A stretch of 64,000 bases of DNA, from positions 1-64,000 of IMG/VR virus record IMGVR_UViG_3300034073_004654. The stretch is one strand, 5' to 3'. Positions 5,330-52,266 of this stretch are shown one piece after another (positions within the stretch are counted from its first letter, which is position 1; every line of letters starts with the position of its first letter). The notes beneath the pieces are model-generated. The model did no database searches, was not told where the DNA came from, and saw nothing but the letters and a program-made list of their open reading frames with translations. Both the position numbers and the translations under genes were made by a program. The DNA comes from a virus.

Positions 5330-5342
5330 AATAATGACATAT
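5330..5342 (+). promoter_or_regulatory. Candidate late-promoter motif AATA-N5-ATAT
   Basis: AATAatgacATAT upstream of leader gene 5361. Confidence 0.55.
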
Positions 5343-5360
5343 TAAAATAAGGAATTAAAT

Positions 5361-6635
5361 ATGTCGTTAAAAGATTTAATTAAAGTTGGAAATTATTACG
5401 AAATTAAATATAAATTTTTAAAATTTGCGGAAGATGATGCTCATGCTCGTTCTATTGCTTTAATGAAATTTCTTTCTGGGATAGCTAAAGAATTAGGAAT
5501 TGCAGAGCACGTTTATGTTGTAGGTGGGGCGGTTAGAAATTATCTTATTGGTCAGCCTATAAAAGATATAGATGTAGTTATTGATTCTGTATTATCTGGT
5601 TATGATTCTGAATGGTTTGCTGAGCAGATAGCAAAGAAAATACAACCTGTTAAAAGTAAATTGACTACCAATAATTACGGGGTAGCGATTTTATCTATTG
5701 ATCCATCTTGGGTATTAGATGGTCATTCTATGTTAGGTCCAAAAGGAACTGGAGAAACAATAGAAATAGCCAATGCTAGAAAAGAATCTTATGGTGGATC
5801 GGAGGGTAAAGGATATAAGCCTCATTCAGTAGAAACTGCTACCATTGAAGAAGATTTATTGCGTAGAGAATTTACATTTAATACTCTTTTGTGGAGGCTA
5901 TCTAACTTAGCAGAAGGACCGGAAAAAGCTGAAGTATTAGATTTATTGGGTCGAGGCAAGTCAGATTTATCTGAAAAAATTTTAAGAACTCCGGCAGATC
6001 CGGATAAAACATTTTCTGATGATCCTACCAGGATGTTACGAGCTATTAAGTTTGTAGCTAAATATAATTTTAAAGTTCCTGAAGATATGTTGGAGAGTAT
6101 TAGGCGCAATGCTTTTAGATTAAATCAAATGCCTTGGAATGCTGTTAGAAATATTTTAATAGATGATATTTTAAAAGCTCCGAATCCAAGAAGGTCAGTA
6201 ATGTTATTGAAGGAGATGAGGCTAGCAGATGCATTAAAAGAAATGATTGAATCCAATCCTGAATTTAAGACTTCTTTGGGAAGAAGTTTTAATGATAATA
6301 CAGATCCGATGTTATTGTTGGATCTATTGGATTTGGATTGGGACATGAAAACGCCTATAAGTTTCTTAAACAATATACAACAAGAAAGATTACGAGAATT
6401 ATTGTTAGAAATGGATGAATCCGATGGTCGCGAATATGTTAAGGCTCTAATTAAGCCTCCTGTTGATTTGCAGTTCTTTTTTAAGAATTTTAACATTCCA
6501 GAAAAAGAGCGCAAGGGAGTTATTTCTATTGCAAGAGATTCTCTTTTAGAAAATCCAAATTTATTAGAAGATCTTAAAAGTCTAACAAGTGAAGTTGAAA
6601 GTAAGTTGGGGAAAATCTGGCGTCGCAACGATTGA
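5361..6635 (+). CDS. cca: Class II tRNA nucleotidyltransferase (CCA-adding/poly(A) polymerase family) with N-terminal leader
   Basis: VYVVGGAVRN...DID, EEDLLRREFTFN, DDPTRMLRAIKF motifs; leader MSLKDLIKVGNYYEIKYKFLKFA. Confidence 0.88.
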   Translation: MSLKDLIKVGNYYEIKYKFLKFAEDDAHARSIALMKFLSGIAKELGIAEHVYVVGGAVRNYLIGQPIKDIDVVIDSVLSGYDSEWFAEQIAKKIQPVKSKLTTNNYGVAILSIDPSWVLDGHSMLGPKGTGETIEIANARKESYGGSEGKGYKPHSVETATIEEDLLRREFTFNTLLWRLSNLAEGPEKAEVLDLLGRGKSDLSEKILRTPADPDKTFSDDPTRMLRAIKFVAKYNFKVPEDMLESIRRNAFRLNQMPWNAVRNILIDDILKAPNPRRSVMLLKEMRLADALKEMIESNPEFKTSLGRSFNDNTDPMLLLDLLDLDWDMKTPISFLNNIQQERLRELLLEMDESDGREYVKALIKPPVDLQFFFKNFNIPEKERKGVISIARDSLLENPNLLEDLKSLTSEVESKLGKIWRRND

Positions 6636-6646
6636 CATTTTAGGTG

Positions 6647-6674
6647 TTGACAAGTAAAAGATCGTGGCTATGTT
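6647..6674 (+). promoter_or_regulatory. Sigma70-type promoter
   Basis: TTGACA-N16-TATGTT, AAGATC in spacer. Confidence 0.75.
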
Positions 6675-6727
6675 GTAGTGGACGGTAGAGATACCGTGCT
6701 AAAATTCTCGTTAACTGAGAGGTAATC

Positions 6728-7447
6728 ATGGATCTTGATAAGGTTATTTCCAAAGTTCAGAAGCTCTTGGCATTGTCGAAGTCGGATAATGCTGGAGAAG
6801 CGGCAGCGGCGATGAATGCGGCAAATAAGCTGATTGATCAGTATCGTTTGTCGTTGGCTGATCTGGAAACTTCTGAGGATACTTTAGATCCTATGATGGA
6901 AGATTCCGAGGCGGTTTATGAAACCGGCAGGATTGTCCAATGGAAATCTTTTTTGGTTGGAGTATTGTCGAAGCATTATGGTTGTGCTTTGTTCAATCAA
7001 ACGACTTTTCCCAAGGGTCGTAAAGTTTCGCATTATAAGTTGGTGGGGCGAAAGAGCGATATTGCCATTGTGCGATATTTCGTTTCATATCTTATGAATG
7101 AGTGCCAGCGTCTTTGTGAAAAAGAGGCGCATGGTAAGGGCAAAGTTTTTGCTAACTCGTATTGTACGGGATTCGTGGCAGGAATTCAGTCACAATTGGC
7201 GGCTAGTCGAAAAGAAGCGGAAAAGGAAGCCACTGGTTCGGCAATTGTAGCAATTAACCGCCGAGTGGAGGAAGCCAATAATTTCATGAATACTTTGTAT
7301 CGTTTGAAATCTTCTAATTCTTCTTCTCAGGCACGCACGGATTATAGCGCGTATTCGCGTGGTTTGCAGCAAGGAAAGAATTTGCATTTGGGAGCGGGCT
7401 TGAATTCCGGTGGTTCTACTTCTGGGATTCGTTTGCTGGGCAATTGA
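6728..7447 (+). CDS. DUF2786 domain protein
   Basis: KVQKLLALSKS.NAGEAAAAM..A.KL N-terminus. Confidence 0.8.
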   Translation: MDLDKVISKVQKLLALSKSDNAGEAAAAMNAANKLIDQYRLSLADLETSEDTLDPMMEDSEAVYETGRIVQWKSFLVGVLSKHYGCALFNQTTFPKGRKVSHYKLVGRKSDIAIVRYFVSYLMNECQRLCEKEAHGKGKVFANSYCTGFVAGIQSQLAASRKEAEKEATGSAIVAINRRVEEANNFMNTLYRLKSSNSSSQARTDYSAYSRGLQQGKNLHLGAGLNSGGSTSGIRLLGN

Positions 7448-7459
7448 AAATATAGGTTT

Positions 7460-7487
7460 GGGGCGGTTCCTAATAAAAACCGCCCGC
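7460..7487 (+). terminator. GC-rich hairpin
   Basis: gggcggtt...aaccgccc after stop codon. Confidence 0.5.
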
Positions 7488-7519
7488 ATTTATTTATATT
7501 TTAAAATTAAGGCAAAAAT

Positions 7520-7864
7520 ATGTCAATTGATAATTTTGTTAGAAAGAATAAAGATCTAGGATTTCGACCTGCTAAGTATTTTCGTTATGAGGGGTCGGAG
7601 GGAATTCGTAATTTAGCTCGATTGGCTAAGGGATTGGGATATGAAGATCCCATGAATCTTGGTTATTTTGATGGGGCATGTTATGGTGATTTGATTTATT
7701 TGCTCGAAGATAATCCTGGGCTTGTAGAAGTGATGCTGGATTGGTTGGAGGAAAATTTCGAGTCTGAATTGGATGATGATTCCGAGGATGATGATTCTGA
7801 AGATGACGAGGACGATGATTCTGAAGATTTGGATAGCGACGATAAAGATGATGAGGAAGATTGA
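7520..7864 (+). CDS. Hypothetical protein with acidic tail
   Basis: ORF; D/E-rich C-terminus. Confidence 0.75.
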   Translation: MSIDNFVRKNKDLGFRPAKYFRYEGSEGIRNLARLAKGLGYEDPMNLGYFDGACYGDLIYLLEDNPGLVEVMLDWLEENFESELDDDSEDDDSEDDEDDDSEDLDSDDKDDEED

Positions 7865-7875
7865 GGAGTTAAATC

Positions 7876-8364
7876 ATGGCTGAATATTATACATTGTTTT
7901 GCGAAAAGCTTGAGATTCGTACTTCTGAGGAATATGAGTGGCTAAAGCGAGTTTATGCTTGGACGCCAGAAGAAGATGGGGGAATAAATCTCGAGGATAT
8001 GGAAGCAGAAATTGAGCGAGTAAAGGAAGAACTTGGCTTTGATCTAAGTTATGAAGATTTTGATACTTTTCCAGAACATCAATATGAATTGACTTCTGAA
8101 TCTCTCAGGGTATATTCTGAGGAAGATTTAAGTACGGGAACGGTTAGCAGGATTATTCAGGGATTTCTGCGGAAATTTCGCCCTGATGAATGTTTTTCAA
8201 TTACTTGGGCTTTTACTTGTAGTAAAACTTGGGTAGGGGAATTTGCGGGAGGGGCGGTATTTATCACGGCAGATAAGATTGAAGATCATCATGTTCGTAA
8301 TTTCGTGATGCAAAAAGAAATGGAACATGAGAAAAGAATTGCAGCTAAGAAAAAGGCAATTTAA
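7876..8364 (+). CDS. Hypothetical protein
   Basis: GAGGAG SD; WAFTCSK...EFAGGAVFITA. Confidence 0.75.
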   Translation: MAEYYTLFCEKLEIRTSEEYEWLKRVYAWTPEEDGGINLEDMEAEIERVKEELGFDLSYEDFDTFPEHQYELTSESLRVYSEEDLSTGTVSRIIQGFLRKFRPDECFSITWAFTCSKTWVGEFAGGAVFITADKIEDHHVRNFVMQKEMEHEKRIAAKKKAI

Positions 8365-8388
8365 GAAAGCATAAAAGTAAGGTAAATT

Positions 8389-8640
8389 ATGGCAAAGGCA
8401 TTTGAATCTCCTGTAACTTTGGATATGGTTATTTACGATAGTTTTGATTATGTAGATGGAAAGGGAGCGACCAGAAATGTTGTTCGAAAACTAATTCCTA
8501 AAAAGCTTCCTACTTCTAAGAACGAGTCTATTCTATTTAAGGTCTATGAAGATAATGATGTGGAATTTGGTTTAATGATGATGCCAATTTCTGAGTTTAA
8601 CAAGTATGTAAACAGAGGTGAATTTAAGATTGCTTGTTAA
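8389..8640 (+). CDS. Hypothetical protein, probable paralog of 12355..12636
   Basis: Shared MPxSEFxxxVxxGxx C-terminus. Confidence 0.7.
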   Translation: MAKAFESPVTLDMVIYDSFDYVDGKGATRNVVRKLIPKKLPTSKNESILFKVYEDNDVEFGLMMMPISEFNKYVNRGEFKIAC

Positions 8641-8646
8641 AAACAA

Positions 8647-8685
8647 ATATCTCTCAAGGTAAAAATCTTGAGAGATATTTTTTTT
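8647..8685 (+). terminator. Intrinsic terminator
   Basis: atatctctcaag/cttgagagatat plus T run. Confidence 0.75.
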
Positions 8686-8724
8686 GGTTATAATTTAACA
8701 TTATAATATACTTAAGGAGAAATT

Positions 8725-9282
8725 ATGTCATTAAAAAGCATGTTAAAAGTAGCTGATTATTATAATGTTAAATATGGTTTTGATAAATATAGCGGAGATG
8801 TAAGGGTAGAACAAACGGGTCAGGGCAAAGTAGCGGAGTTGCTTTTCTCACAAAATCCTGCGGCGAATTTGTTGAGCTTAAAACAAGCTAGCAATGATCT
8901 AATCACTATGACATTTGTAGATAAAATTAGAAAGTTATCAGAAGATAAAGCTGAAGGAAATAATCTTACTGTTTCTTTATATCCTGAAATTTTGGTAGCA
9001 TCTCAAAACTCAGGGACTATTACTCCCAAGGCAACTATAGATATTACCATGTCTCCTGGTGAGAAGTCTTTTATAGGAGATCCTGAAACTCAAAAATTAA
9101 TTAATGAATTACAAGTAGCTTATAATCAAGAATATAAAAAATTATCTCGTCAGAGTTTTGAAGCCAGAGCAAAAGAGATAAGTAGCAAAAATCAATTTTA
9201 CGAAAATTTGAATGCAGCTGGAAACGATGAAAATACTGTTAAATCTAAATTCACTGTTTCTCAAACGGATGTGTTTGAATAA
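8725..9282 (+). CDS. Leader-family hypothetical protein
   Basis: MSLKSMLKVADYYNVKYGFDKYS; AAGGAG SD. Confidence 0.8.
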   Translation: MSLKSMLKVADYYNVKYGFDKYSGDVRVEQTGQGKVAELLFSQNPAANLLSLKQASNDLITMTFVDKIRKLSEDKAEGNNLTVSLYPEILVASQNSGTITPKATIDITMSPGEKSFIGDPETQKLINELQVAYNQEYKKLSRQSFEARAKEISSKNQFYENLNAAGNDENTVKSKFTVSQTDVFE

Positions 9283-9409
9283 TTTAAAAGTTTCATGATT
9301 CAATTAATCAAAGATCTTTCGGCAACTCTTGCTGTTATTAGCGGAGTTGCCATTTTCTTTTACTATTATTTCTTGTTTTGATAGCTGCAAACTATCTGCA
9401 ATTAAGTTG

Positions 9410-9437
9410 TTGACAGGTAAAGATCGCGCCTTATGTT
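9410..9437 (+). promoter_or_regulatory. Sigma70-type promoter
   Basis: TTGACA-N16-TATGTT; AAGATC spacer; upstream AACTATCTGCAATTAA box. Confidence 0.75.
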
Positions 9438-9476
9438 GGTAGGGTCGCAGATAGAAGCGATCAAAGGAAGCAAATT

Positions 9477-9986
9477 ATGAACTATACTCTTGAGATTGTT
9501 CCCGATATCGATCCGATTAATCCTCGTGAAGATAGGGAATTTAGCACTATCTATTATAGTTCTTATCGTTATACTCTTGGTGATGAGTGCGTTTCTAAAG
9601 AGGAGATTGATCGCATTATCGAAGATAAGGATATGGTGTATCTTCCGGTTTATGCTTATATCCATGGTGGGGTAATGCTGAATACTTCTGGATTTTCTTG
9701 TCCTTGGGATTCTGGAATGAGCGGTATTATTGCGGTATCCAAGGATAAGATTCGCCGGATTTACAATACCAAGCGAGTTACTAAGAAGATTCTGGAGCAA
9801 GTTAATAATCGTCTTAAGGCGGAAGTTGAGGAGTTTTCTCAATATCTGAACGGTGAAGTCTACGGTTTCCAGGTTAAGGACGCAAACGGAGATATTGTGG
9901 AAAGCTGTTACGGATTTTATTCCGAGGAGGATGCAGAATCCGAGGGTAAGACAGTTTTGGATTATTTCAATAAGAAGGCGGCTTGA
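9477..9986 (+). CDS. Conserved hypothetical phage protein
   Basis: NPRE...LPVYAYIHGG...CPWDSG...YLNGEVYGF. Confidence 0.8.
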   Translation: MNYTLEIVPDIDPINPREDREFSTIYYSSYRYTLGDECVSKEEIDRIIEDKDMVYLPVYAYIHGGVMLNTSGFSCPWDSGMSGIIAVSKDKIRRIYNTKRVTKKILEQVNNRLKAEVEEFSQYLNGEVYGFQVKDANGDIVESCYGFYSEEDAESEGKTVLDYFNKKAA

Positions 9987-11012: not shown

Positions 11013-12260
11013 GTCAATTACCACCAGCACAAGGCTGGTGGCTTGTAAGTAGCATTTCTGCCCCTACAATAGGCTGATTGACAACAGCCCCATTGGATAG
11101 CTTATAGCTATCCAATGCTCTAATGCTAATATTTCTACTAGCATTCAAGTCTGCATTTAGTTTAAATCCACAGCTTTTACAGCAAAAATTAGCTTGATTT
11201 TTCCTGTTCTTTTTATCTATGTTTCCACACTTGCTACATTTTTGACTAGTATAAGCTGGATTTACATAAACTACATTTATGCCTTTTGCTATTGCTTTAT
11301 AAATCAAAAACTGTTCTAACTGATAATAATTCCAGCTATTTAAAGCTGCTCTTTGACGTTTTCTGACTTTTTGATTTCTAATACCAGTCAATTTCTCTAA
11401 AGCAATAGTGTCACCTGAATTTAAACTGTTTATTATTTCTTTACTTATCTTATGATTAAGATCTGCCTTAAACCGTTTTTCCTTACCTGATAATTTCTTA
11501 AGGTGTCTTTTAGCAGATTTGCTTCCATTTTTTTGTAAGTTACTTCTTAATGTTTTACGTTTCTGGCAAATTAATTTTAATTTATCTCCAGAATAAAATT
11601 TATTATTTGAAGTAACAGCTAGTTTGTTTATTCCTCTATCAACTCCTAAAAATTTTCCATTCGATTTAATATCTTCAATATCTTTTTCAAAAGATATGTG
11701 TAAGTAGACCTTTCCTTTTTTAAGGACAAGATCAGCACTGGTATATTTCCATCCATCAAAATAATGCTGATAATATACTGGAATATTTAGTTTAATTTTT
11801 TTCCTACCATCAATTGTTAAAATTGACACTTCTCCAGATTTAAGCAAAGAATAGCTATTACAATCTAATCTAATAGAGGACAGTTTGGATTGTGGACATT
11901 TGCTGTATTTATTTTTACTTTTAATGCTTTTTAAAGCTTCTACTGCTTTGGTTCTGGCTGAAATAGCTAATTGTGATGGTAGGTTAAAATTGGCTCTACA
12001 ATCTTGGTAAGTTAATTTATGAAGTTCAATAGCGTTAGATATTTTATTATCATAGCCAACTTGACAAACTAAGTTAAATGCATTAGTATAGGCTTGCAAC
12101 GATGGTAGAATTTGATCTACCTTCATATTAAGTTTTAACTTAGCAGTCCTACATAGCTTCATATATGAATATATAAAGTTATGCATAGAAATTTAAAAAA
12201 ATTAGAAAGGGGCAATTCCTCCACCAGCACGAGGCTGGTGGTATCCTTGCCAAGAAGATT
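11013..12260 (-). mobile_element. IS200/IS605 (IS1341-like, TnpB only) element
   Basis: Matching subterminal hairpins caccagcacRaggctggtg at both ends; inserted 3' of TTCAT on minus strand; right end TTGAC; no target duplication. Confidence 0.9.
11014..12162 (-). CDS. tnpB: RNA-guided endonuclease TnpB
   Basis: GVDRG, IALEKL, YTSQKCSKCG...FCCKSCG zinc finger, NADLNASRNI. Confidence 0.93.
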   Translation of the reverse strand: MKLCRTAKLKLNMKVDQILPSLQAYTNAFNLVCQVGYDNKISNAIELHKLTYQDCRANFNLPSQLAISARTKAVEALKSIKSKNKYSKCPQSKLSSIRLDCNSYSLLKSGEVSILTIDGRKKIKLNIPVYYQHYFDGWKYTSADLVLKKGKVYLHISFEKDIEDIKSNGKFLGVDRGINKLAVTSNNKFYSGDKLKLICQKRKTLRSNLQKNGSKSAKRHLKKLSGKEKRFKADLNHKISKEIINSLNSGDTIALEKLTGIRNQKVRKRQRAALNSWNYYQLEQFLIYKAIAKGINVVYVNPAYTSQKCSKCGNIDKKNRKNQANFCCKSCGFKLNADLNASRNISIRALDSYKLSNGAVVNQPIVGAEMLLTSHQPCAGGN

Positions 12261-12354
12261 ATGAAATTGGCAAACATCGGGCTCTTAAAAAGCCCCGCTT
12301 AACGGTTTATCGGTTCAAATCCGATCAGCGGCACCAATAATTCAACATAAAACC

Positions 12355-12636
12355 ATGAGTGATTTACAAGTTTTAGAAGATATCCAGGTTTGCACGGTAG
12401 TAATTGATAGAACACCATATACCAGTTCCGGTGCAATTTTAAGGAAACATGAATTAATGGTGGTTTCAATTGCTCCAAAATGGAATCATGACTTTATCAG
12501 TTTAGCCAAATTCATTGTTTTGGGGAATGGAAATTCCGATATTCGGATTTTTAAGATGCCTTTTTCTGAATTTAAAGATAAAGTGGAAAAAGGCGATTAT
12601 GTAGTGGTAGATATTGTGGCAGATCAATCGCAGTAA
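12355..12636 (+). CDS. Hypothetical protein, probable paralog of 8389..8640
   Basis: Shared C-terminal motif. Confidence 0.7.
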   Translation: MSDLQVLEDIQVCTVVIDRTPYTSSGAILRKHELMVVSIAPKWNHDFISLAKFIVLGNGNSDIRIFKMPFSEFKDKVEKGDYVVVDIVADQSQ

Positions 12637-12962
12637 TCAACTTCTACCAAATAATAATTTGGCAAATCATCTTCGATTAAGATTCCATGTTCTTCTAACA
12701 TGGGAGTAAGTTCAAGAACTTCGATCAATCTTTCATTTTCTTTTTCAAAAGACTTTGAGATATCAGGATCTTCAGAGTTTCTTTTAACCCAATCATTCAT
12801 TAATCTATGATAAGCCTGCTTTAATCCTTGGAAAGTGGCTAATTTCAAATGATTATCTCTTAGTAAGGATTCGGCTTTCTCTTTGTTAGAAAAAATTTTA
12901 ATAGGAATCGAGATAGATTCATTATTGGAACGATAATGTTGCATTAAAACATAAACCTTCAT
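12624..12962 (-). CDS. Hypothetical protein
   Basis: MKVYVL...IKIFSNKEKAE, typical small phage protein start. Confidence 0.65.
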   Translation of the reverse strand: MKVYVLMQHYRSNNESISIPIKIFSNKEKAESLLRDNHLKLATFQGLKQAYHRLMNDWVKRNSEDPDISKSFEKENERLIEVLELTPMLEEHGILIEDDLPNYYLVEVDYCD

Positions 12963-13002
12963 AATAATATGATGTTTTATGCAATTGCTAAGAAGGAGAG
13001 AT

Positions 13003-13209
13003 ATGAGCAAGCAATCTTTTGAAGATAATGCAATTAGTTTTCCAATTTGCGATGGGGTAGAACTATCTGTTTCTGCATCGGATGATAGCAGGAAAGTAAA
13101 TATTCATGTTGGAAATCAAGATGTTGGAATTTATTTAGAGCCGAATAAGAAGCAATTGCAGCGATTGATTCGAAATTTGAAGCAAATTGAAAGCGGGCTA
13201 AAGGGTTAA
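13003..13209 (+). CDS. Hypothetical protein
   Basis: AAGGAG SD. Confidence 0.65.
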   Translation: MSKQSFEDNAISFPICDGVELSVSASDDSRKVNIHVGNQDVGIYLEPNKKQLQRLIRNLKQIESGLKG

Positions 13210-13211
13210 AA

Positions 13212-13424
13212 ATGTCTTATATTCAAAAAGGTGATAAAATTTTGGTTTATGGAAAGCCTGCTATTGCCACTTCTAACGAATACACCAAGTTAGTTTATGA
13301 TTCTTATGATTATGATTTAGAATCTTGGGGTTACGAAGGAGGAACCGCAACGGGCTACATTAATGTAGAATACGAAAACGGGGTTGTAGCATCGGTTCCA
13401 ACGCGAATTTGCAGCAAGGCATAA
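13212..13424 (+). CDS. Hypothetical protein
   Basis: ORF in operon. Confidence 0.65.
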   Translation: MSYIQKGDKILVYGKPAIATSNEYTKLVYDSYDYDLESWGYEGGTATGYINVEYENGVVASVPTRICSKA

Positions 13425-13441
13425 CAAATTGATTTAACGGC

Positions 13442-13469
13442 TTGACAAGAAAAGATCCTGCATTATGTT
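13442..13469 (+). promoter_or_regulatory. Sigma70-type promoter
   Basis: TTGACAAGAAAAGATCCTG..TTATGTT. Confidence 0.75.
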
Positions 13470-13492
13470 ACAGGGTGAGGCTAGGGGCAATT

Positions 13493-13708
13493 ATGAAAGA
13501 AAAGGCTAATTCTGACATGATTCAAGAAGATATTTTTCATCAATTGAAGGTTACGATTCAAGAAGCAATTGTAGCGGAGTGCGGAAAATCTGAATCTGTG
13601 GTTAAATTGGATGATTGGGAGGATCTATTTTGGGCAAGTAGGGCTTTGGGTCGATATTTGACCGATCAAGAATGGAATGCAATTGGCAAGTCTGCCGGAT
13701 ATTTTTGA
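13493..13708 (+). CDS. Hypothetical protein
   Basis: First ORF after promoter. Confidence 0.6.
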   Translation: MKEKANSDMIQEDIFHQLKVTIQEAIVAECGKSESVVKLDDWEDLFWASRALGRYLTDQEWNAIGKSAGYF

Positions 13709-13719
13709 TGTAGATGGTC

Positions 13720-13747
13720 TTGACAAGAAAAGATCCTGAGTTATACT
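13720..13747 (+). promoter_or_regulatory. Sigma70-type promoter
   Basis: TTGACAAGAAAAGATCCTGAGTTATACT. Confidence 0.8.
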
Positions 13748-13767
13748 GATTGGAGATGGAGGCAGCT

Positions 13768-14298
13768 ATGAGTTTTTTTAATGATCTTTCGGTTATTCGT
13801 CCTGATTCTACCTTTTTGACTCTGAAAGGTTATCGTTCGCAGTTTGACGAGGTGGCAGATTATAACATTGTATTTCATGTTAGTTATGAAAATGCTTTGA
13901 AGAAGTCGGTTGCTATTCTCGAGAATTATGTTCCCGGTGATCTTTTGGAAGAAAAGGCTAAGAACGAGCTAATTGCAGGTTACAAGGCTTCTTTGTATAA
14001 GATTGCCAATGATTCCGAGAGTGAATCGGAGCATTATGCAAAGGTTTTGGATGAGGCTGGCAAGGCAATTAAGGGAGTAAAGGTTCACCGAGAGACGGGT
14101 ATTGCTTATATTTTCGGTTTGCTTCATCGAAAGCATGTGATTAAGGCTGGAGAGTATAAGAACAGCAATAAGCAGGCTTTTACTTTGGTTAAGGATAGTC
14201 TGAGGAAGCTAACTCCTGTCAATAAGTGGCGACAATTTATTGTTAAGCCTGGGCAGGTTGAGGCGATTAAGGTTGAGAATTTGACTTTGCTTCCTTGA
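13768..14298 (+). CDS. Hypothetical protein
   Basis: GGAGG SD; long ORF. Confidence 0.75.
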   Translation: MSFFNDLSVIRPDSTFLTLKGYRSQFDEVADYNIVFHVSYENALKKSVAILENYVPGDLLEEKAKNELIAGYKASLYKIANDSESESEHYAKVLDEAGKAIKGVKVHRETGIAYIFGLLHRKHVIKAGEYKNSNKQAFTLVKDSLRKLTPVNKWRQFIVKPGQVEAIKVENLTLLP

Positions 14299-14345
14299 TT
14301 CAGGTTTCTGAGAGTTATTACTTTAGCTATAAGGGAATTGATAAC

Positions 14346-14579
14346 ATGAAGATCGGACAGCGAGTAATGATTAACAATGTTGATGGTCCCCATACTTTTG
14401 GGGTATATGCTGGAACCGCTGTAATGCAGCGGTTTGAGAATTCCGATATGGAAACTATGGCAATTGTCCGATTGGATATGGGAGATTGTGGATATATTTT
14501 GCCGGATGGTCGAGGAAAGAAGCCTGTAAATTTTGTGAGTTGTGTGGTTGTTCATCCTAGTAATTTGACGGTTGCTTGA
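14346..14579 (+). CDS. Hypothetical protein
   Basis: ORF in operon. Confidence 0.6.
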   Translation: MKIGQRVMINNVDGPHTFGVYAGTAVMQRFENSDMETMAIVRLDMGDCGYILPDGRGKKPVNFVSCVVVHPSNLTVA

Positions 14580-14590
14580 GGGAGGTTATT

Positions 14591-14965
14591 ATGGGATATT
14601 ATATGAGCCAGGTAGATGCGGATTTCTTTATTTCCAAAAAGAATTTCCCTGATGTAATTAGGGCAATTCACCAGATGGATTCTGATGGTTCTTGGGTTCG
14701 TTCTGATTTCCGAGAAACCAAGGATCTTGAGGAGATTTTTAATTGTTGGCGATGGGAAATCTTTTTCGACGAAGATGGGGATGTGACGGATATTTCTTTC
14801 CGTGGTGAGAAGTTGGGGGATGATGAACTTTTGTTTAAGGCAATTGCGCCATATGTGAAGAAGGGTTCATTTATTCAGATGAATGGGGAGGGTACGGATC
14901 AATGGCGTTGGGTCTTTAATGGGGTTAGTTGTTACGAGCAACATCCTAGGGTAATTTGGGATTGA
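14591..14965 (+). CDS. Conserved hypothetical phage protein
   Basis: GEKLGDDE.LF.AIAPYV..GS.I.M.GE...WRW.F; GGAGG SD. Confidence 0.75.
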   Translation: MGYYMSQVDADFFISKKNFPDVIRAIHQMDSDGSWVRSDFRETKDLEEIFNCWRWEIFFDEDGDVTDISFRGEKLGDDELLFKAIAPYVKKGSFIQMNGEGTDQWRWVFNGVSCYEQHPRVIWD

Positions 14966-14979
14966 AAGGAAAAAAAACA

Positions 14980-15276
14980 ATGACAAAGATTACTGTTGTA
15001 GTTAAAGAGCCTGGTAAGACTCCTGAAGTTAAAGAGATTGATGATACTTTGGAGTCTATGCAGGAAGTAGTTGGTGGATATATTGAACTGGTAGCTATGC
15101 CCAATAATCTTGATTTTTATGTTAATGAGGAGGGGTTAGCCGAGGGATTGCCGTTTAATACCCATATTCGAGGAGTTCCGGTAGTGGGTACGGTTTTTGC
15201 AGCTTCGAGGAATTCTAGTGGAGATACCATTGGATTGACTAAATCTCAGATTGACAAGGTAATGACCTTAATTTAA
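14980..15276 (+). CDS. DUF3846-like protein
   Basis: LESMQEVVGGYIE...NEEG...GLPFN. Confidence 0.75.
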   Translation: MTKITVVVKEPGKTPEVKEIDDTLESMQEVVGGYIELVAMPNNLDFYVNEEGLAEGLPFNTHIRGVPVVGTVFAASRNSSGDTIGLTKSQIDKVMTLI

Positions 15277-15287
15277 AATAAGACTTT

Positions 15288-15364
15288 CCGACCTTAGCTC
15301 AATTGGTTAGAGCATCCGACTCATAATCGGCAGGTTTTCGGTTCAAGTCCGAAAGGTCGGACCA
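15288..15364 (+). tRNA. tRNA with CAU anticodon (Ile2 or elongator Met)
   Basis: ccgacct/aggtcgg acceptor, ctcataa loop, ttcaagt T-loop, encoded CCA. Confidence 0.92.
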
Positions 15365-15578
15365 TTTACATATAACTATACGGAGTTTATTATGAGCCAA
15401 TTTTATATCCGAGCGGTTAATGAGTTCGATGACAATGGTGCGGCATTGTTTTGGAACAATGAATTTGGTTGGGTAAATCAATCCGAGGCGGATATTTTTT
15501 CTTCCGAGGAAATGATTGAGTTTGATTTGCCGATGGGCGGAGTTTGGCAAAAGTTTTTTAATTGAGGGAGGTTAAATC

Positions 15579-15809
15579 ATGAATATTATTAATCACGAGA
15601 GTATTGTTGATGTTAAACCCATTCAGATTGTTTCGGGGTGTCGTCCTCACCGAAAGGTTTTGAGGCATATTCCTGAGAATAAGATCACTCCTTATGTGAT
15701 TCATATTGAAAATCTCGAGGTTGAAGGAGATAATCTTGTTCATTTGGATTTTCATGCAGGTCATTACTTTAGGGATCTAGAGTCTGCCAAGCTAGCTTTT
15801 GGTAATTGA
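15579..15809 (+). CDS. Hypothetical protein
   Basis: GGAGG SD. Confidence 0.65.
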   Translation: MNIINHESIVDVKPIQIVSGCRPHRKVLRHIPENKITPYVIHIENLEVEGDNLVHLDFHAGHYFRDLESAKLAFGN

Positions 15810-15828
15810 AATAATAAGGAAAATCCTC

Positions 15829-16035
15829 ATGGAAGCTATTATTAAAGAAGCGGGCAACGGATTTCCTACAATTGGTGATGTTCTGGAGAATGACGAAGGA
15901 TGTTTTAAGGTAACATCTTATATTGGACCAATCCATACCAGCGGTTTTGGGAAGCCCAATTATATTTATGCGACTGTAGAGCCGACTCAAGATTCTGATG
16001 ATATTTTCCAGGCTCATTTAATTGTCCAGAATTAA
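15829..16035 (+). CDS. Hypothetical protein
   Basis: AAGGA SD. Confidence 0.6.
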   Translation: MEAIIKEAGNGFPTIGDVLENDEGCFKVTSYIGPIHTSGFGKPNYIYATVEPTQDSDDIFQAHLIVQN

Positions 16036-16040
16036 AGTAG

Positions 16041-16069
16041 TTGACTTGGAAAAGAACTTGTGTTAGAAT
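16041..16069 (+). promoter_or_regulatory. Sigma70-type promoter
   Basis: TTGACT-N17-TAGAAT. Confidence 0.7.
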
Positions 16070-16095
16070 AGTTGTGCAGAGTGAGGGAGACTAAA

Positions 16096-16308
16096 ATGAA
16101 CAAATACGGTATGATTATTGAGGAAAAGCGGGTCCATTTCGTGATTGTGGAAGCCGAGGATGAAGATCGGGCAATTGAAATTGCAGCGGAAATGGGCGTT
16201 GATGATTATGACCAAACGGATATTGGCGGAGATTGGGATGTGACTACTTGCCAAAAGTTTAAGATTAGTGAATCTGACAAGGTAATTGCTAAGAAGGTAC
16301 TTGGCTGA
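16096..16308 (+). CDS. Hypothetical protein
   Basis: VEAEDEDRA motif; GGAG SD. Confidence 0.65.
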   Translation: MNKYGMIIEEKRVHFVIVEAEDEDRAIEIAAEMGVDDYDQTDIGGDWDVTTCQKFKISESDKVIAKKVLG

Positions 16309-16345
16309 GTTAAGTAGACTTGCTAAACAAAGATGTTTTGAGGTG

Positions 16346-19084: not shown

Positions 19085-19097
19085 ATATTTAATTATT
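19085..19097 (-). promoter_or_regulatory. Candidate late-promoter motif
   Basis: AATAattaaATAT on minus strand upstream of 19056. Confidence 0.55.
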
Positions 19098-27553: not shown

Positions 27554-27566
27554 ATATCTTGATATT
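27554..27566 (-). promoter_or_regulatory. Candidate late-promoter motif
   Basis: AATAtcaagATAT, 6 nt before ATG 27547. Confidence 0.55.
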
Positions 27567-27592
27567 AACATATTAAACTTACAAAGGGCATT

Positions 27593-27936: not shown

Positions 27937-27949
27937 AATATTTTCATAT
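27937..27949 (+). promoter_or_regulatory. Candidate late-promoter motif
   Basis: AATAttttcATAT, 6 nt before ATG 27956. Confidence 0.55.
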
Positions 27950-31232: not shown

Positions 31233-31366
31233 TCAACTTTCCTTTACCAGTCCTCCTTCTTAGTAAAGGATCATTTACTAGTAACTTTGGATAATAAAGG
31301 ATCGTTTACTAGCTAGCGACCTTTGATTAATTCGGTATAATGACATTGGAACATTAAGGATAGCTC

Positions 31367-32389
31367 ATGTCAAAAATCTCAAAAATCCTAGAAGCCTGCG
31401 ATATTTTCTCTCGTCTTGTAAAAAAAGCTGATTATTCAGCTGACATTACAGATGGCAAGAAAGCTTTAAATAATTTGAAATCCGTCATTGAGGGATTGGA
31501 TATTGAATCTTTTAGAAGGATTTTAGAAGAGGAAAATGACGAATATCGTTATTTACCTGGAAGATTAATGGGGGATAAATATAAAGATTGCAGGGTTCAA
31601 TTTCAATATAAGGATGAACCGCAAAAAGAAGATAAGTTTATTAATTTTGAAATAGTTAACAGGGATGATTACGAGGATTATGAAGCTTATGAGGATGATA
31701 AGCCAATATCCACTCCAATTGGACCTGCCATTTTACAAGACGGCTATGATTTAGAATTAATATTAGATATTGATAGTTTTTCAAGTCATCGAAATTATTT
31801 ATTTAGTGAAGGTCGAACTCGTCCCAGTGAATTTTTTGAATTTAAAATAGAAGAAGGAGCTGAAGAAGATGAATACATTAATGACTTAGATGAGGCTTAT
31901 TTAATTGGATTAAAGAAAGCAATTATTAAGGCTTGTTCAAAGGAGCAGCCTGCATTTTATCATGAGGTGGCTCATTTAAGAAGAATGAGAAAGCAAAACC
32001 CTATAGAATTTATTAAGCAATGGAACCCATCAAAATCGCCCAATGTACCATTAAATTTGATGAAAGCTAATTTTAAAACTGATACTGAGTTATATCCACA
32101 GGAGTTGGAGCGATTTTCTAATGAACTTCGCAAATTAATTAATGAATTTAATTTAAGAAAAAGCAAAAGAGATCCTTCTTGGGAGGAGCTAAGTTTCTTG
32201 GATTTCTTGGATCAAATTTATGATATGCGGTCCAAACATAATTTTATTACATCTATGAAGGGAAGAATGGATATCGGTCTTGGTTTCTATGATGAATATG
32301 ATGATTATTCAAAATCCGCGATAAAAAGAATTTCCAAGTTTTACGATGACATGGTAGCTGGGAAATTTAAAGATACGCTTGGCATTTAA
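31367..32389 (+). CDS. Leader-family protein with HExxH motif
   Basis: MSKISKILEACDIFSRLVKKA; FYHEVAH. Confidence 0.75.
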   Translation: MSKISKILEACDIFSRLVKKADYSADITDGKKALNNLKSVIEGLDIESFRRILEEENDEYRYLPGRLMGDKYKDCRVQFQYKDEPQKEDKFINFEIVNRDDYEDYEAYEDDKPISTPIGPAILQDGYDLELILDIDSFSSHRNYLFSEGRTRPSEFFEFKIEEGAEEDEYINDLDEAYLIGLKKAIIKACSKEQPAFYHEVAHLRRMRKQNPIEFIKQWNPSKSPNVPLNLMKANFKTDTELYPQELERFSNELRKLINEFNLRKSKRDPSWEELSFLDFLDQIYDMRSKHNFITSMKGRMDIGLGFYDEYDDYSKSAIKRISKFYDDMVAGKFKDTLGI

Positions 32390-32406
32390 TAATTGAACAT
32401 AAAGTT

Positions 32407-33783: not shown

Positions 33784-33796
33784 AATAATTAAATAT
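33784..33796 (+). promoter_or_regulatory. Candidate late-promoter motif
   Basis: AATAattaaATAT upstream of 33821. Confidence 0.55.
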
Positions 33797-39569: not shown

Positions 39570-39617
39570 ATGAAAAAATGATTAATGTTGTCATTCAATA
39601 ATTCCTTATCTTAATAT

Positions 39618-41343: not shown

Positions 41344-41376
41344 ATTACCTCTTAATTAATAGGAGAATATTAATAT

Positions 41377-41625
41377 ATGTCAAAGATAGCTTTTTGGAAT
41401 TATAGAGTTATTAAAAGCATAGATGATTTTGGAGAATCAACTTTTGCTATTCATGAAGTTTACTATGAAGAGAATAATCAACCTATAGCTTGTTCTGAAA
41501 ATCCTATAGGTATAATTTCAGAAACATTAGACGGATTAACAAAACAATTTGACCTTTTTAAATTGGCTTTAGATAAACCAATTTTAGAAATGAATTATTT
41601 TGAAAACTTAGAAAAAAAACCATGA
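41377..41625 (+). CDS. Conserved hypothetical phage protein
   Basis: WNYRVI...IHEVYY; AGGAG SD. Confidence 0.75.
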   Translation: MSKIAFWNYRVIKSIDDFGESTFAIHEVYYEENNQPIACSENPIGIISETLDGLTKQFDLFKLALDKPILEMNYFENLEKKP

Positions 41626-44297: not shown

Positions 44298-45665
44298 TTA
44301 AAATTCTCTGATTCGAGCTGGTGGCTTAACCGCAAGGGCTCTTGATGCTGCTTCTTCGAGATACTTTTTTAAATCTGGTTCAATATTTTTAAAAGAATTA
44401 CCTTGTATTGCTCTGCTCATTTGATTTAAAAATGTAACTCCAAATAAATCGGATCCAGCCAGTTCAATCATTTGATTGATGCTCATTTGTTCATTTGATT
44501 CAATATTTTTCTGCTCTATTTCCCTAGCCAAATTAATTATTGAAGATCCCAGCTTATTCATTTTAATGATCTCTGCGTAAATTTGGGAAATTTCTGATCT
44601 GGTTTTATTTTCCTTTATGATTTTCTCTTTAATGTTTTCTATTGAGTTTACTATTGATGATGAATGGCTCTTCATTTCTTGATATATTGTATCTTTAGGT
44701 CTATTTAACCCAGGAGCACCAGCTTCTCCTTTTACTAAATATTTTTGCATTAAGTCATTAATTACTCTGCTATTATCTCTGCGTTCGGTGGCGGCTGCGG
44801 GAGTGGAAGAATTAGAGGGTGCGGTGCTTTGAGCGGGTTTTGCCCCTCTATAATATTCTAAATATTGTTGTCTCCATTCTTTGGAACCAAAGTCAGCCTT
44901 GCTTAATCTGGCTATTTTAGCTAAATTATTATAAATAGTAGTCCCTACAGAAGAAAGTTGTTTGTTTGTAGTTTCTAAAAACGCTTTATAAAATGATGGT
45001 TTATCAGTTGGTGGGTTTGCAGAGCGATCATAAATTGATTTTAATAGCCTTGCTGCCATAAAGGCTGATTGCATATTATTAAATATTTGAGGGTTTATTT
45101 CTTTAAGATTTGAATTTCCATAGTTTGCCCACCAATTTTTTAATTGGACATAAACTTGCTTCCCATTTTCAGACCATGTTGGGTCAATTTTTCCTTTTGT
45201 AAAACTCAGCCCCGTAGTGGCTACATATTTAGCAGGCTCTAATAAAGAAGCTGCAATCTTGACTGCTGCCATTTTTGCTTTTTTAACATCCCCTGATTCT
45301 AATGCTTGTATTTGAGTTTCATTTTTTGGTGAAACTTTATTAGATGAAACTTTATTAGATGAAATTTCTTTAAATAGGTTAGGAAGATCTTTATCAGAAT
45401 AAAACTTTCCATTTGTAGGAATTGATTTAAAAGCATTGCTTTTTGTATCTCCTTTTACATACCAATATCCAGGATCTCCTAAAACCCAAAAATAATAGAT
45501 CTTATCTTTTATTAAGACCAAAGCCCCTCTGGTATTTCTTCCCGAAAATTCAAATCCAAAATCAGCCGCATATTGCCCAAGTAAAGACAAATTAACATCT
45601 TTTAGTGGTGTATCTGCTTGTTGAGCCCATTTTAATAATTTTTTCATTCTTAATGAATAAGCCAT
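44298..45665 (-). CDS. Leader-family large hypothetical protein
   Basis: MAYSLRMKKLLKWA; GAGGA SD; internal LAKIARLSKA. Confidence 0.75.
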   Translation of the reverse strand: MAYSLRMKKLLKWAQQADTPLKDVNLSLLGQYAADFGFEFSGRNTRGALVLIKDKIYYFWVLGDPGYWYVKGDTKSNAFKSIPTNGKFYSDKDLPNLFKEISSNKVSSNKVSPKNETQIQALESGDVKKAKMAAVKIAASLLEPAKYVATTGLSFTKGKIDPTWSENGKQVYVQLKNWWANYGNSNLKEINPQIFNNMQSAFMAARLLKSIYDRSANPPTDKPSFYKAFLETTNKQLSSVGTTIYNNLAKIARLSKADFGSKEWRQQYLEYYRGAKPAQSTAPSNSSTPAAATERRDNSRVINDLMQKYLVKGEAGAPGLNRPKDTIYQEMKSHSSSIVNSIENIKEKIIKENKTRSEISQIYAEIIKMNKLGSSIINLAREIEQKNIESNEQMSINQMIELAGSDLFGVTFLNQMSRAIQGNSFKNIEPDLKKYLEEAASRALAVKPPARIREF

Positions 45666-45695: not shown

Positions 45696-45729
45696 ATATC
45701 TTAATATTGCAGCAATATATATTAATATT
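45696..45729 (-). promoter_or_regulatory. Two tandem candidate late-promoter motifs
   Basis: AATAttaatATAT and AATAttaagATAT on minus strand. Confidence 0.55.
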
Positions 45730-49806: not shown

Positions 49807-49819
49807 ATATGATAATATT
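49807..49819 (-). promoter_or_regulatory. Candidate late-promoter motif
   Basis: AATAttatcATAT. Confidence 0.55.
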
Positions 49820-51324: not shown

Positions 51325-51352
51325 TTGACAAGATAAAGAAGATGATTAAGCT
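51325..51352 (+). promoter_or_regulatory. Sigma70-type promoter
   Basis: TTGACA-N16-TAAGCT. Confidence 0.65.
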
Positions 51353-51393
51353 AGGGTGGTCAAGGGCAACGGCTCATCAAATATGGAGTAATT

Positions 51394-51597
51394 ATGGATC
51401 TTAAAAGTTTAATCAATAAAAGCATTGAAACAAACAAGCCTGTAAAACTTTCGCCAAAGTTAACCTTGGCGGCGCAACAAAAAAACAATCAAGTTCTCGT
51501 AAAGTTAAGTATGCGTGGAAATTTAATTTGGACAGACTCTAATACACTGGATAAGATTACAGAAGATTTAGCAATTGAAATTGATAATTACGAGTGA
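51394..51597 (+). CDS. Hypothetical protein
   Basis: GGAG SD. Confidence 0.6.
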   Translation: MDLKSLINKSIETNKPVKLSPKLTLAAQQKNNQVLVKLSMRGNLIWTDSNTLDKITEDLAIEIDNYE

Positions 51598-51776
51598 ATT
51601 TAATTATGAGTAAGCGTCGAAATTCTAATATGGACAATTTTAATGATGACTTTCAAAATCTTGATTTCAAAGATGATTTCTTTGAAGATCGAGAAGAAAA
51701 CTTTGGGCGCAAGTTTCGAGAGAAAAATCTAAGAGACTTTAAGAAAGAGCGTCGTCGTCAAAAAGAATCATGGTAA
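51594..51776 (+). CDS. Hypothetical charged protein
   Basis: ORF in operon. Confidence 0.5.
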   Translation: MNLIMSKRRNSNMDNFNDDFQNLDFKDDFFEDREENFGRKFREKNLRDFKKERRRQKESW

Positions 51777-51808
51777 CAGTTGATGTGAAACTAACTACAA
51801 TTTGACTC

Positions 51809-51836
51809 TTGACGCTATTAAGTTGATGGTTATCTT
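51809..51836 (+). promoter_or_regulatory. Sigma70-type promoter
   Basis: TTGACG-N16-TATCTT. Confidence 0.65.
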
Positions 51837-51855
51837 GTAATCAGAGGCAAGAGCT

Positions 51856-52194
51856 ATGCGTATTTGTATTGAGTGTGAAATTGAATTTGATGAGCGTTCT
51901 CCTGAAAAGCGCAGGGTTGGTGGATTGATTTCTTGTTGCCCAGATTGTAGCAAGGAAACTACTATTAAATATGCTGGTGTGCAAGCCGCTGATGGCAAGC
52001 AGGCTCAAGCTACTATTTTGAAATTTAAGTCTGAGCAAGATAAGAAACAATATATTAATTTCTGGCAAAATAACAGTGGTTTCCATAAAGGAAAAAGTTG
52101 CCAGTTAGGAGCGCATCTTTCCACTACTCCTAACATAAGTTTTCAAACTATTACAGCCTTTAATCCTACTAATCATAAAGGCAAAGCTCTGTAA
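51856..52194 (+). CDS. Zinc-ribbon protein
   Basis: CIEC...CPDC. Confidence 0.7.
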   Translation: MRICIECEIEFDERSPEKRRVGGLISCCPDCSKETTIKYAGVQAADGKQAQATILKFKSEQDKKQYINFWQNNSGFHKGKSCQLGAHLSTTPNISFQTITAFNPTNHKGKAL

Positions 52195-52206
52195 CTAAAA
52201 ATAATT

Positions 52207-52239
52207 AAAATCCCCAGGAAAAATCCTGGGGATTTTTTT
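52207..52239 (+). terminator. Intrinsic terminator
   Basis: aaaatccccagg/cctggggatttt. Confidence 0.85.
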
Positions 52240-52253
52240 ATTTCCAGTTTAAT

Positions 52254-52266
52254 AATATTAAGATAT
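52254..52266 (+). promoter_or_regulatory. Candidate late-promoter motif
   Basis: AATAttaagATAT, identical to the copy at 45696-45708 on the minus strand. Confidence 0.6.

Follow-up and report, generated by a model that had tools for sequence, protein, structure and literature searches.

The window analysed here, 64,000 nt of the 76.9-kb record of an uncultivated giant phage (the record is 21% complete), contains about 25 textbook host-type TTGACA promoters (class I). Phage tRNAs and a TilS-family PP-loop enzyme lie behind promoters of this class. The window also contains leader genes, which have an N-terminal leader in common and include types A and B; before them a first-pass annotation reported the motif AATA-N5-ATAT. 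Each of these exact matches (5330+, 19085-, 27554-, 27937+, 33784+, 45696-, 45717-, 49807-, 51069- and 52254+) was confirmed in coordinate and strand. The motif ends 6-34 nt from the start codon, close to the gene as claimed, and the tandem copy 51 nt from it; the starts at 33821, 27547 and 49785 used for these distances are those set by leader alignment rather than by the longest ORF. The near-matches before genes 32407, 39618, 41343 and 8725 are also as that annotation described them. Sites and neighbouring features are collected in Table 1; the matches before gene 41377 are its weakest members because the region is a 33-nt divergent gap.

Table 1. Motif sites in the window and features beside them
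Position	Strand	Site	Distance to start codon	Downstream gene	Remarks
1945..1957	+	near-match TATAATTTAATAT	13 nt before ATG 1971	non-leader	exact 'orphan' match at 1954(-) overlaps the reverse complement of this near-match
5330..5342	+	AATAATGACATAT	18 nt before ATG 5361	type-A leader fused to CCA-adding/poly(A) polymerase domain	Shine-Dalgarno AAGGA between motif and ATG
8689..8701	+	TATAATTTAACAT, one-mismatch variant	23 nt before ATG 8725	type-A leader gene	directly 3' of hairpin and T-run
12336..12348	+	AATAATTCAACAT	exactly 6 nt, then ATG 12355	non-leader	no Shine-Dalgarno sequence
19085..19097	-	AATAATTAAATAT	28 nt before ATG 19056	type-A leader gene	single-gene unit, opposite strand to early operons
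27554..27574	-	overlapping pair AATATGTTAATAT and AATATCAAGATAT	14 and 6 nt before ATG 27547	leader-like (MDIKLLNRAVNLFAKLA)	no Shine-Dalgarno sequence
27937..27949	+	AATATTTTCATAT	exactly 6 nt, then ATG 27956	type-B leader gene	no Shine-Dalgarno sequence
31336..31346	+	variant TATAATGACAT	20 nt before ATG 31367	type-B leader	GGTA(A)TAATGACAT stretch similar to that at 5330, here with a perfect TATAAT
32388..32400	+	AATAATTGAACAT	exactly 6 nt, then ATG 32407	type-B leader	listed at first pass as near-match, is exact AATAWT-N3-AYAT; overlaps 3' end of preceding gene
33784..33796	+	AATAATTAAATAT	24 nt before ATG 33821	type-A leader	Shine-Dalgarno AGGAG between motif and ATG
39597..39609	+	AATAATTCCTTAT, one-mismatch variant	8 nt before ATG 39618	leader gene, HMM E 0.003	
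41358..41378	+	two overlapping exact matches	one ends 6 nt from ATG 41377, the other overlaps it	non-leader	
45696..45729	-	tandem GCAATATTAATATAT and GCAATATTAAGATAT	51 and 30 nt before ATG 45665	leader-like, 455 aa	Shine-Dalgarno GAGGA between motif and ATG; class I promoter of divergent gene nearby at 45754
49807..49819	-	AATATTATCATAT	21 nt before ATG 49785	opens three-gene minus-strand unit	identical 13-mer also precedes leader operon of relative L091
51069..51081	-	AATAATTAAATAT	34 nt before ATG 51034	leader-like	TATAAT and Shine-Dalgarno GAGGA downstream of motif
52207..52236	+	intrinsic terminator, 13-bp stem and T-run			closes upstream early unit; immediately 5' of the 52254 motif
52254..52266	+	AATATTAAGATAT	19 nt before ATG 52286	first of four leader genes (52286-56676)	

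The wording AATA-N5-ATAT holds but is under-specified, and yAATAWT-N3-AYAT fits better. All 10 core sites have AATAAT or AATATT, hexamers that agree with TATAAT at 4-5 of 6 positions and keep A-11 and T-7; a pyrimidine stands just before the hexamer in 9 of the 10, and the variants at 8689, 31336 and 42094 contain a perfect TATAAT. This anatomy suggests a -10-like hexamer, three variable bases and a predicted start site, for which AYAT would give a pyrimidine at -1 and A at +1. Upstream of the hexamer, the TGn extension that defines an extended -10 promoter is absent at the core sites, the best -35 box scores 1-4 of 6 (mean 2.1 over ten sites), which is within the random distribution, and no column in the 20 nt upstream of the motif is informative or conserved. 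Measured against canonical sigma70 promoters such as those of class I, the sites have the -10 element and lack the -35 box.

The motif is always 5' of any Shine-Dalgarno sequence. Five of the 16 start-proximal matches lie exactly 6 nt from the ATG (Bonferroni P 4e-4), and AATAWT-N3-AYAT-N6-ATG occurs three times against 0.11 expected; this fixed 6-nt subclass has no Shine-Dalgarno sequence. Transcripts may accordingly be of two kinds, one with a 15-35-nt leader containing a Shine-Dalgarno sequence, the other with a leader of about 8 nt, no Shine-Dalgarno sequence and the motif exactly 6 nt before the ATG. At sites of the second kind a role in translation is not separable from a promoter role. 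The same subclass, found in the window and in distant relatives, would suit an RNA-level signal (for translation initiation or processing, an A/U-rich element at a set distance from the AUG or an RNase site) on transcripts that begin somewhere else, as would the site at 32388, within a possible operon and just 17 nt past the preceding stop. This is nevertheless the least probable of the readings we weighed. At the remaining half of the sites the ATG is 14-34 nt away and a normal Shine-Dalgarno sequence lies between, which means that the motif does not serve as ribosome-binding site in those cases; the minus-strand and post-terminator units described below need a promoter and show no other conserved element, and cassettes in the relative L091 directly follow terminators.

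The 64-kb window holds 26 matches to AATA-N5-ATAT, against 10.1 expected, and 17 of the 27 matches in the 76.9-kb record are intergenic (8.2 kb of intergenic DNA), while 10 sit within coding sequence. Tested against AT-matched background, the excess stood: 12 distinct intergenic loci were found versus 2.8 expected from dinucleotide or 30-nt block shuffles, and none of 2000 shuffles reached 12. The count alone is marginal (P about 0.06) because the pattern was picked post hoc among all 4-Nk-4 patterns, the best of which equals the observed count in 5.5-6.5% of AT-matched shuffles. It is further evidence that makes the case convincing. The intergenic 13-mer AATAATTAAATAT, with four copies, shares first place among repeated 13-mers with the early-promoter word, and at least three copies of one 13-mer are reached in 1.7% of shuffles. 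When EM was seeded on 50 non-TTGAC upstream regions, the first-pass motif ranked first of 160 seeds, with a low information content (8.4 bits) and a likelihood not clearly above that of junk motifs. Matches made up of A and T alone are inflated by the AT-richer upstream regions of AT-richer genes.

Leader genes, defined by an HMM criterion, make up 15 of all 147 genes but seven of the 13 that have a match near the start (Fisher P 3e-5). Among leader genes that open a transcription unit, 7/9 have a forward match at no more than one mismatch, compared with 2/9 on the reverse strand and with 5/34 other non-TTGAC units. The motif is thus enriched before leader genes, but to say that it marks them, as first proposed, is an overstatement, since the non-leader genes 12355 and 41377 carry it and the unit-opening leader genes 565 and 31367 have no match at that stringency, just poorer variants. 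Gene 41377 had been given as the one non-leader exception; it is an exception, and gene 12355 is another.

The motif and the class I promoter are mutually exclusive. None of the 25 TTGAC units carries the motif, versus 10 of 47 other units (P 0.01), in keeping with the earlier statement that leader genes with the motif use no TTGAC promoter. Five of eight minus-strand units carry it, and the sites at 52254 and 8689 come just after intrinsic terminators; in such minus-strand units and post-terminator positions a promoter is logically required. The motif marks a second set of transcription units (class II), to which belong leader genes, genes on the minus strand and genes that directly follow terminators. 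Its genes differ in composition from those of class I, with GC of 33.2% versus 38.1%, GC skew of 0.085 versus 0.20 and ATA+AGA+TTA codons at 9.3% versus 3.1%, an approximately three-fold higher use (P 4e-6). The codon and composition contrasts, along with the tRNAs and TilS-family enzyme behind class I promoters, hint at a possible late expression of class II.

In metagenomic relatives the orthologous site is conserved despite diverged flanks. The block yAATATTAAGATATA of the 52254 site is identical in L090 and L092, and L091 has AATAATTAGATAT at its position; the terminator stem and the spacers differ. All five exact matches in L090, L091, L092 and L098 precede leader genes, and none was found outside leader-gene upstream sites in 21.5 kb of related DNA. 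In the distant relatives L094, L095, L098 and L103, AATAWW-N4-CAT-N6-ATG precedes the orthologous leader gene. G001-G004, which are more distant, show no enrichment of the strict motif, so its conservation is limited to close kin and the fixed-phase variant.

L091 differs from the window by two insertions (1536 and 912 nt), which fall at 58680 and 58958-58966 of the window between flanks of 86-94% identity. They consist of 22 and 37 nt of upstream DNA including a motif variant, with which each insertion opens, followed by one leader-gene ORF, and are located just 3' of terminators. Present in one phage and absent from the other, these cassettes have precise borders that take in the candidate promoter. 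The suggestion that cargo genes travel as self-contained units of promoter, leader and payload is supported by these two precise indels, each a motif stretch plus an ORF.

A separate promoter class is the most likely explanation, because the motif is conserved in relatives and comes and goes there along with its gene. We consider it probable that this jumbo-phage fragment has a second class of promoters, independent of a -35 box, whose core is the motif; of the late promoter first proposed, the distinct -35-less promoter-like element stands. The candidate promoter and a short leader region, together with the N-terminal leader peptide and its payload, form a compact unit, which is gained and lost in one piece among related phages.

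The motif could instead be an operator that overlaps the true promoters and binds a regulator of phage or host origin, a dimeric repressor or activator, and not itself what the polymerase recognises. Partial palindromes are found at 45717 (GCAATAT-N6-ATATTGC), 27937 (GAATAT-N4-ATATTC) and 27553 (AATATC-TT-GATATT), the palindromic gapped words TAAT-N8-ATTA and AATA-N6-TATT are among the commonest intergenic words, and there are tandem copies at 45696/45717 and in L091. However, the inverted arms vary in spacing (2, 4 or 6 nt), as in AT-only sequence and not as for one dimeric binder, the motif is directional relative to genes (12/16 forward versus 5/16 reverse), and the L091 cassettes offer no other candidate promoter, all of which makes an operator very unlikely.

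The alternative with the best claim, though still an unlikely one, is that host sigma70 uses the sites as ordinary weak promoters, or that they are just AT-rich words resembling a -10, and that neither a dedicated factor nor a temporal class is involved. AATAAT and AATATT would then be the normal look of a -10 in intergenic DNA of 68% AT, and the leader genes would be expressed constitutively at a low level. The resemblance of the 5' half to TATAAT, perfect in three variants, favours this, as do the family-wise P of the count, the many such hexamers yielded by a generic sigma70 scan and the lack of a sigma or polymerase gene in the fragment. Against it, an AYAT conserved at fixed distance from the hexamer is not a sigma70 promoter feature, the -35 box and TGn extension are both missing, the two gene sets are sharply split in composition, and the four exact 13-mer copies, the footprint in relatives and the fixed 6-nt phase exceed composition effects.

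For the favoured promoter class, the missing -35 box and TGn extension imply that unaided host sigma70 holoenzyme should use the sites poorly. They are probably read by host core polymerase with the help of a sigma or co-factor that the phage encodes, for which T4 and SPO1 are precedents, and the need for such a factor would have class II fire after the TTGACA units. The 21%-complete fragment encodes no sigma factor (Sigma70_r2) or phage RNA polymerase. Its relatives are jumbo phages of 257-361 kb, and those that are 60-97% complete encode one or two sigma70-family proteins each; these contain region 4, with which a -35 box would ordinarily be expected.

That the reader is rather a phage non-canonical multisubunit RNA polymerase, of the AR9/phiKZ non-virion type, in place of host core plus sigma, we regard as highly improbable. 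AR9 and phiKZ bring their own virion polymerase, whereas early genes here use consensus host-type promoters, and the relatives encode sigma factors. No match to PF00562 or PF00623 was found in the record or four relatives (one 97% complete), and no Rpb2_6, Rpb1_2 or T7-type polymerase domain by Pfam in the 97%-complete relative or three others, a search that divergent subunits could escape. The jumbo-phage size of the relatives favours such a polymerase, as does the geometry of the candidate promoter. The late promoter of the AR9 non-virion RNA polymerase is A(-11)ACA-N6-U-A/G(+1) (PMC7598289). Both have four conserved bases, six variable ones and a pyrimidine-purine step at the start (predicted here) in a jumbo-phage setting, and AATA-N6-Y-A differs only at -9, with AACA there and AATA here; unlike the class proposed here, AR9 has its own polymerase reading template-strand uracils.

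Among sigma70 promoters, the motif is closest to the -10-only and extended -10 types in its TATAAT-like AATAAT or AATATT with A-11 and T-7 and no -35 box; it differs in having no TGn, a conserved downstream block and a fixed phase to the ATG. The subclass 6 nt before the ATG with no Shine-Dalgarno sequence recalls promoters of leaderless or short-leader mRNAs, although a leader of about 8 nt, not 0 nt, is predicted, and genes whose leaders have a normal Shine-Dalgarno sequence stand behind the same motif.

T4 late promoters, TATAAATA, are read by host core polymerase with gp55, gp33 and the gp45 clamp. Like the sites here, they have an AT-rich element in the -10 region that is short and unaccompanied by a -35 box, and in both phages early genes have strong host sigma70 promoters; T4 late promoters serve a second temporal class that includes virion-packaged proteins, a use that the motif may share. 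The T4 consensus itself is not enriched in our sequence (8 versus 8.95 expected, none at motif sites), and the motif has a second conserved block, AYAT, at the presumed start. In the sigma cascade of Bacillus phage SPO1, gp28 and then gp33/34 act in turn, with GATATT as the late -10. Its middle and late promoters have -35 elements of their own, whereas none was found here. SPO1 is comparable to the proposed class in that sigma factors of phage origin steer the core polymerase of the host towards new classes of promoter, and some of the sites here contain GATAT(A/T).

Large phages time their programme by second promoter classes, which to our knowledge have almost never been defined for uncultivated jumbo phages. 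The motif described here is probably the core of a class of promoters that need no -35 box and serve mainly the units of leader genes, that is, genes sharing a common N-terminal leader. The whole virus record is 76,892 nt long, the window being its first 64 kb; it is rated 21% complete by CheckV and originates from subsurface metagenomes. Its closest relatives, IMG/VR contigs, measure 128-361 kb, so we regard it as a jumbo-phage fragment. Small genes on the plus strand are numerous, and the record also holds two TnpB elements, a PrkA-YeaH-SpoVR trio, DUF932, DUF2786 and DUF1281 proteins, a TilS-family PP-loop enzyme and four tRNA genes. With PHROGs and Pfam, no structural genes were recognisable across the 77 kb and most leader genes received no assignable function; the phage collection gave zero matches to this phage at the DNA or protein level.

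The first-pass annotation had listed AATA-N5-ATAT sites before leader genes, and all of its coordinates are exact matches. The enrichment over AT-matched intergenic background that it anticipated was found: 17 of the 27 matches in the whole record fall within 8.2 kb of intergenic DNA, at 12 distinct loci where 2.8 are expected, a number reached in 0 of 2000 AT-matched shuffles. As the pattern had been picked by eye, shuffles were also scored for the best of all 4-Nk-4 patterns, which equals the observed count in 5.5-6.5% of them, so the intergenic count taken alone is marginal. The word AATAATTAAATAT is present four times, making it the most repeated intergenic 13-mer, tied with the early-promoter word; three copies of one intergenic 13-mer are reached in 1.7% of shuffles. 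Ten aligned sites gave yAATAWT-wAn-ATAT, with no conserved signal in the 20 nt upstream of them, and an EM search recovered the motif without setting it clearly apart from junk motifs of low information. The repeated word, the information at variable positions, the link to leader genes and the exclusivity described below rescue the observation despite the marginal count. The motif is real, and its better form is yAATAWT-N3-AYAT (class II).

Leader genes were defined with an HMM built from 14 N-termini (threshold E<0.01), which recovers 15 of them in two types, A (MSLKxxIKVANYYxVKY) and B (MxKIxKLLxxxxxFxxLVKxA); several further genes previously counted as leader genes are merely helix-like. 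Of 13 genes bearing the motif near their start, 7 are HMM leader genes, against 15 of 147 genes overall (P 3e-5). Among unit-opening leader genes, 7/9 have a forward motif with at most one mismatch (2/9 on the reverse strand), compared with 5/34 at the same tolerance among the remaining non-TTGAC units, whose AT content is similar. The proposal that the motif marks leader genes therefore stands as an association and fails as a strict rule: the non-leader genes 12355 and 41377 carry it, and leader genes 565 and 31367 have poorer variants only. Ten matches lie inside coding sequence, and the exact match at 1954(-) arises from reading a near-match upstream of gene 1971 in reverse.

The other signal in the record, TTGACA-N16-18-TATnnT (class I), has about 25 plus-strand sites, many with the common spacer AAGnAAAGATC, upstream of operons that look early as well as of the TilS gene and all four tRNAs. 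The class II motif occurs in 0/25 class I units and in 10/47 other units; the two signals are mutually exclusive. Class I sites span window positions 2381-62456 (e.g. 3547, 13442, 13720). Beyond TTGACA and TTATnnT they keep the spacer AAGnAAAGATCC and a start rich in G (GTAG...), a conservation exceeding the needs of sigma70 recognition that hints at an additional factor or at a recent duplication of promoters. In a scan of IMG/VR, matches to the early-promoter word, TTGACAAGNAAAGATC, were single and chance-like only.

Class II sites have neither a -35 box nor a TGn extension. Their 5' half, AATAAT or AATATT, agrees with TATAAT at 4-5 of 6 positions, and a perfect TATAAT is found there at 8689, 31336 and 42094; a less probable reading is that the sites are plain weak host promoters. 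Two arrangements relative to the start codon are seen. One places the motif 14-34 nt from the ATG with a Shine-Dalgarno sequence in between; the other places it exactly 6 nt away without one (12336, 27554-, 27937, 32388, 41358). This single spacing is shared by 5/16 matches, a strong departure from uniformity (Bonferroni P 4e-4), and AATAWT-N3-AYAT-N6-ATG is observed three times against 0.11 expected. Less probably, the motif is an operator or an RNA-level signal. If it is a promoter core with AATA read as -11 to -8, Y falls at -1 and A at +1; we infer a start site at the A of AYAT and an mRNA leader of about 8 nt at fixed-phase genes.

Some short leader regions resemble each other: ACATCTTGGAATATAA-ATG before 55189 (55160-55188) and GCATCGGAATAAAAT-ATG before 52286 (52267-52285). 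TTGGAAT stands at the equivalent place in two relatives, L090 and L092, and GGAAT may serve as a conserved, non-canonical region for ribosome binding.

Loci of relatives were found by profile scan of IMG/VR and of metagenomes; scans of IMG/VR with the single proteins of genes 44298-45665 and 55189-56676 gave no close relatives, and a scan with the type-A leader peptide confirmed none. Homologues of the 495-aa leader protein (55189-56676) share 36-59% identity with it, and three metagenome contigs (L090, L091, L092) are syntenic with window 51.8-59 kb. At the orthologous position these close relatives have a terminator, then the motif, then the first leader gene. Terminator stems and spacers diverge among the window and the three contigs; L090 and L092 keep yAATATTAAGATATA unchanged; in L091, AATAATTAGATAT is found together with a further copy, AATATTATCATAT, the same 13-mer as at window 49807. 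In 21.5 kb from these contigs and the more distant L098, all five exact AATAWT-N3-AYAT matches lie just upstream of leader genes. AATAWW-N4-CAT-N6-ATG precedes the orthologous gene in the distant L094, L095, L098 and L103 (GC 28-43%); the fixed-phase form thus recurs before orthologues in phages differing widely in GC content. The leader HMM from this phage barely detects the leaders of distant relatives. In the distant relatives G001-G004, the strict motif YAATAWTWANATAT and the variant TAATAGTT-N3-CATAT, from the 128-kb relative L055, are either not enriched or not gene-associated.

The suggestion that promoter, leader and payload travel together is borne out by two precise indels. Around 56.7-59.0 kb, L091 and the window are 86-94% identical apart from two insertions, each carrying a variant of the motif and one leader gene (505 and 283 aa) that the window lacks. 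Both lie directly after conserved terminators, with just 22 or 37 nt brought in ahead of the gene, which directly supports promoter-plus-gene cassettes. The motif moves with leader genes as a cassette.

Positions of fixed-phase class II motifs and of leader-gene insertions
Feature	Position	Position in window	Boundaries
Motif 6 nt from ATG		12336-12357	
Motif 6 nt from ATG		27937-27958	
Motif 6 nt from ATG		32388-32409	
Motif 6 nt from ATG	L098:243-264		
Motif 6 nt from ATG	L091:7762-7783		
1536-nt insertion	L091:7759-9294	58680	starts AGTAATAGTTTAACATTAAAAT-ATG, ends at stop codon of 505-aa leader gene
912-nt insertion	L091:9587-10498	58958-58966	...CATATTTAAACATTAAAAT-ATG and 283-aa leader gene

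Genes of the two classes differ in GC content (33.2% in class II, 38.1% in class I), GC skew (0.085 and 0.20) and the share of ATA, AGA and TTA codons (9.3% and 3.1%, P 4e-6), a contrast that is confounded in part, since the DNA upstream of AT-rich genes is itself AT-rich. The compositional split of the whole record's gene set follows promoter class. A tRNA-Arg(TCT), a CAT-anticodon tRNA and the TilS-family enzyme lie downstream of class I promoters; with the codon contrast, this is compatible with class I acting first and class II later, a circumstantial case for the order.

Late timing of class II, like its reading by a phage sigma factor, would be a sub-claim with less support than promoter function. 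This fragment has no Sigma70_r2 domain, and relatives that are 60-97% complete each encode one or two sigma70-family proteins (209-328 aa) that contain regions 2 and 4. A phage polymerase is a less probable reader; searches of the relatives with Pfam families found no multisubunit or T7-type RNA polymerase domains. The late promoter of phage AR9, AACA-N6-U-A/G (PMC7598289), has the same geometry as the class II motif, a resemblance rather than membership. The word TATAAATA of T4-type late promoters is not enriched here.

A tentative, rather doubtful extension is a 'late cargo' module coupling promoter, leader peptide and codon regime, by which jumbo phages of this uncultivated lineage would trade genes for virion cargo as minimal cassettes able to express themselves. 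Such a cassette would combine a -35-less promoter of about 20 nt with a targeting helix at the N-terminus and a free payload, the promoter starting either an 8-nt or so Shine-Dalgarno-free leader or a short Shine-Dalgarno-bearing one. A phage sigma factor or co-factor would switch all cassettes on together, after early-expressed tRNAs and TilS had made ATA/AGA/TTA-rich codons readable. The motif, which separates two gene populations, is conserved in relatives, travels as a cassette and in one form is fixed 6 nt from the start codon, offers a testable handle on the members of the putative packaged-cargo set, their switch and the movement of cargo genes between phages. Annotators of this lineage can also use it to identify real start codons and to delimit transcription units.

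The TnpB genes at window 717-1934(+) and 11014-12186(-) are OrfB_IS605 with a Cas12f1-like TNB, and have no detectable DNA similarity to each other. The former has a class II near-match 6 nt upstream of its GTG start; the idea that its element split a promoter from gene 565 found no support, the ends of the two elements not being definable. The complete YeaH(DUF444)-SpoVR-PrkA stress-kinase operon (record 65084-69556, L001:5084-9556) is preceded by TGGTATAGT, an extended -10-like box of neither class. At window 5361-6635 a poly(A) polymerase/CCA-adding head domain (PF01743, E 2e-16) is fused to a type-A leader. L055 carries long arrays of small paralogous genes (5546-9836, 12793-20091) with the MORN-like repeat YYxNGxLHREDGPAxE, each closing with the same ...AAAGCTTTATGGTAA junction.
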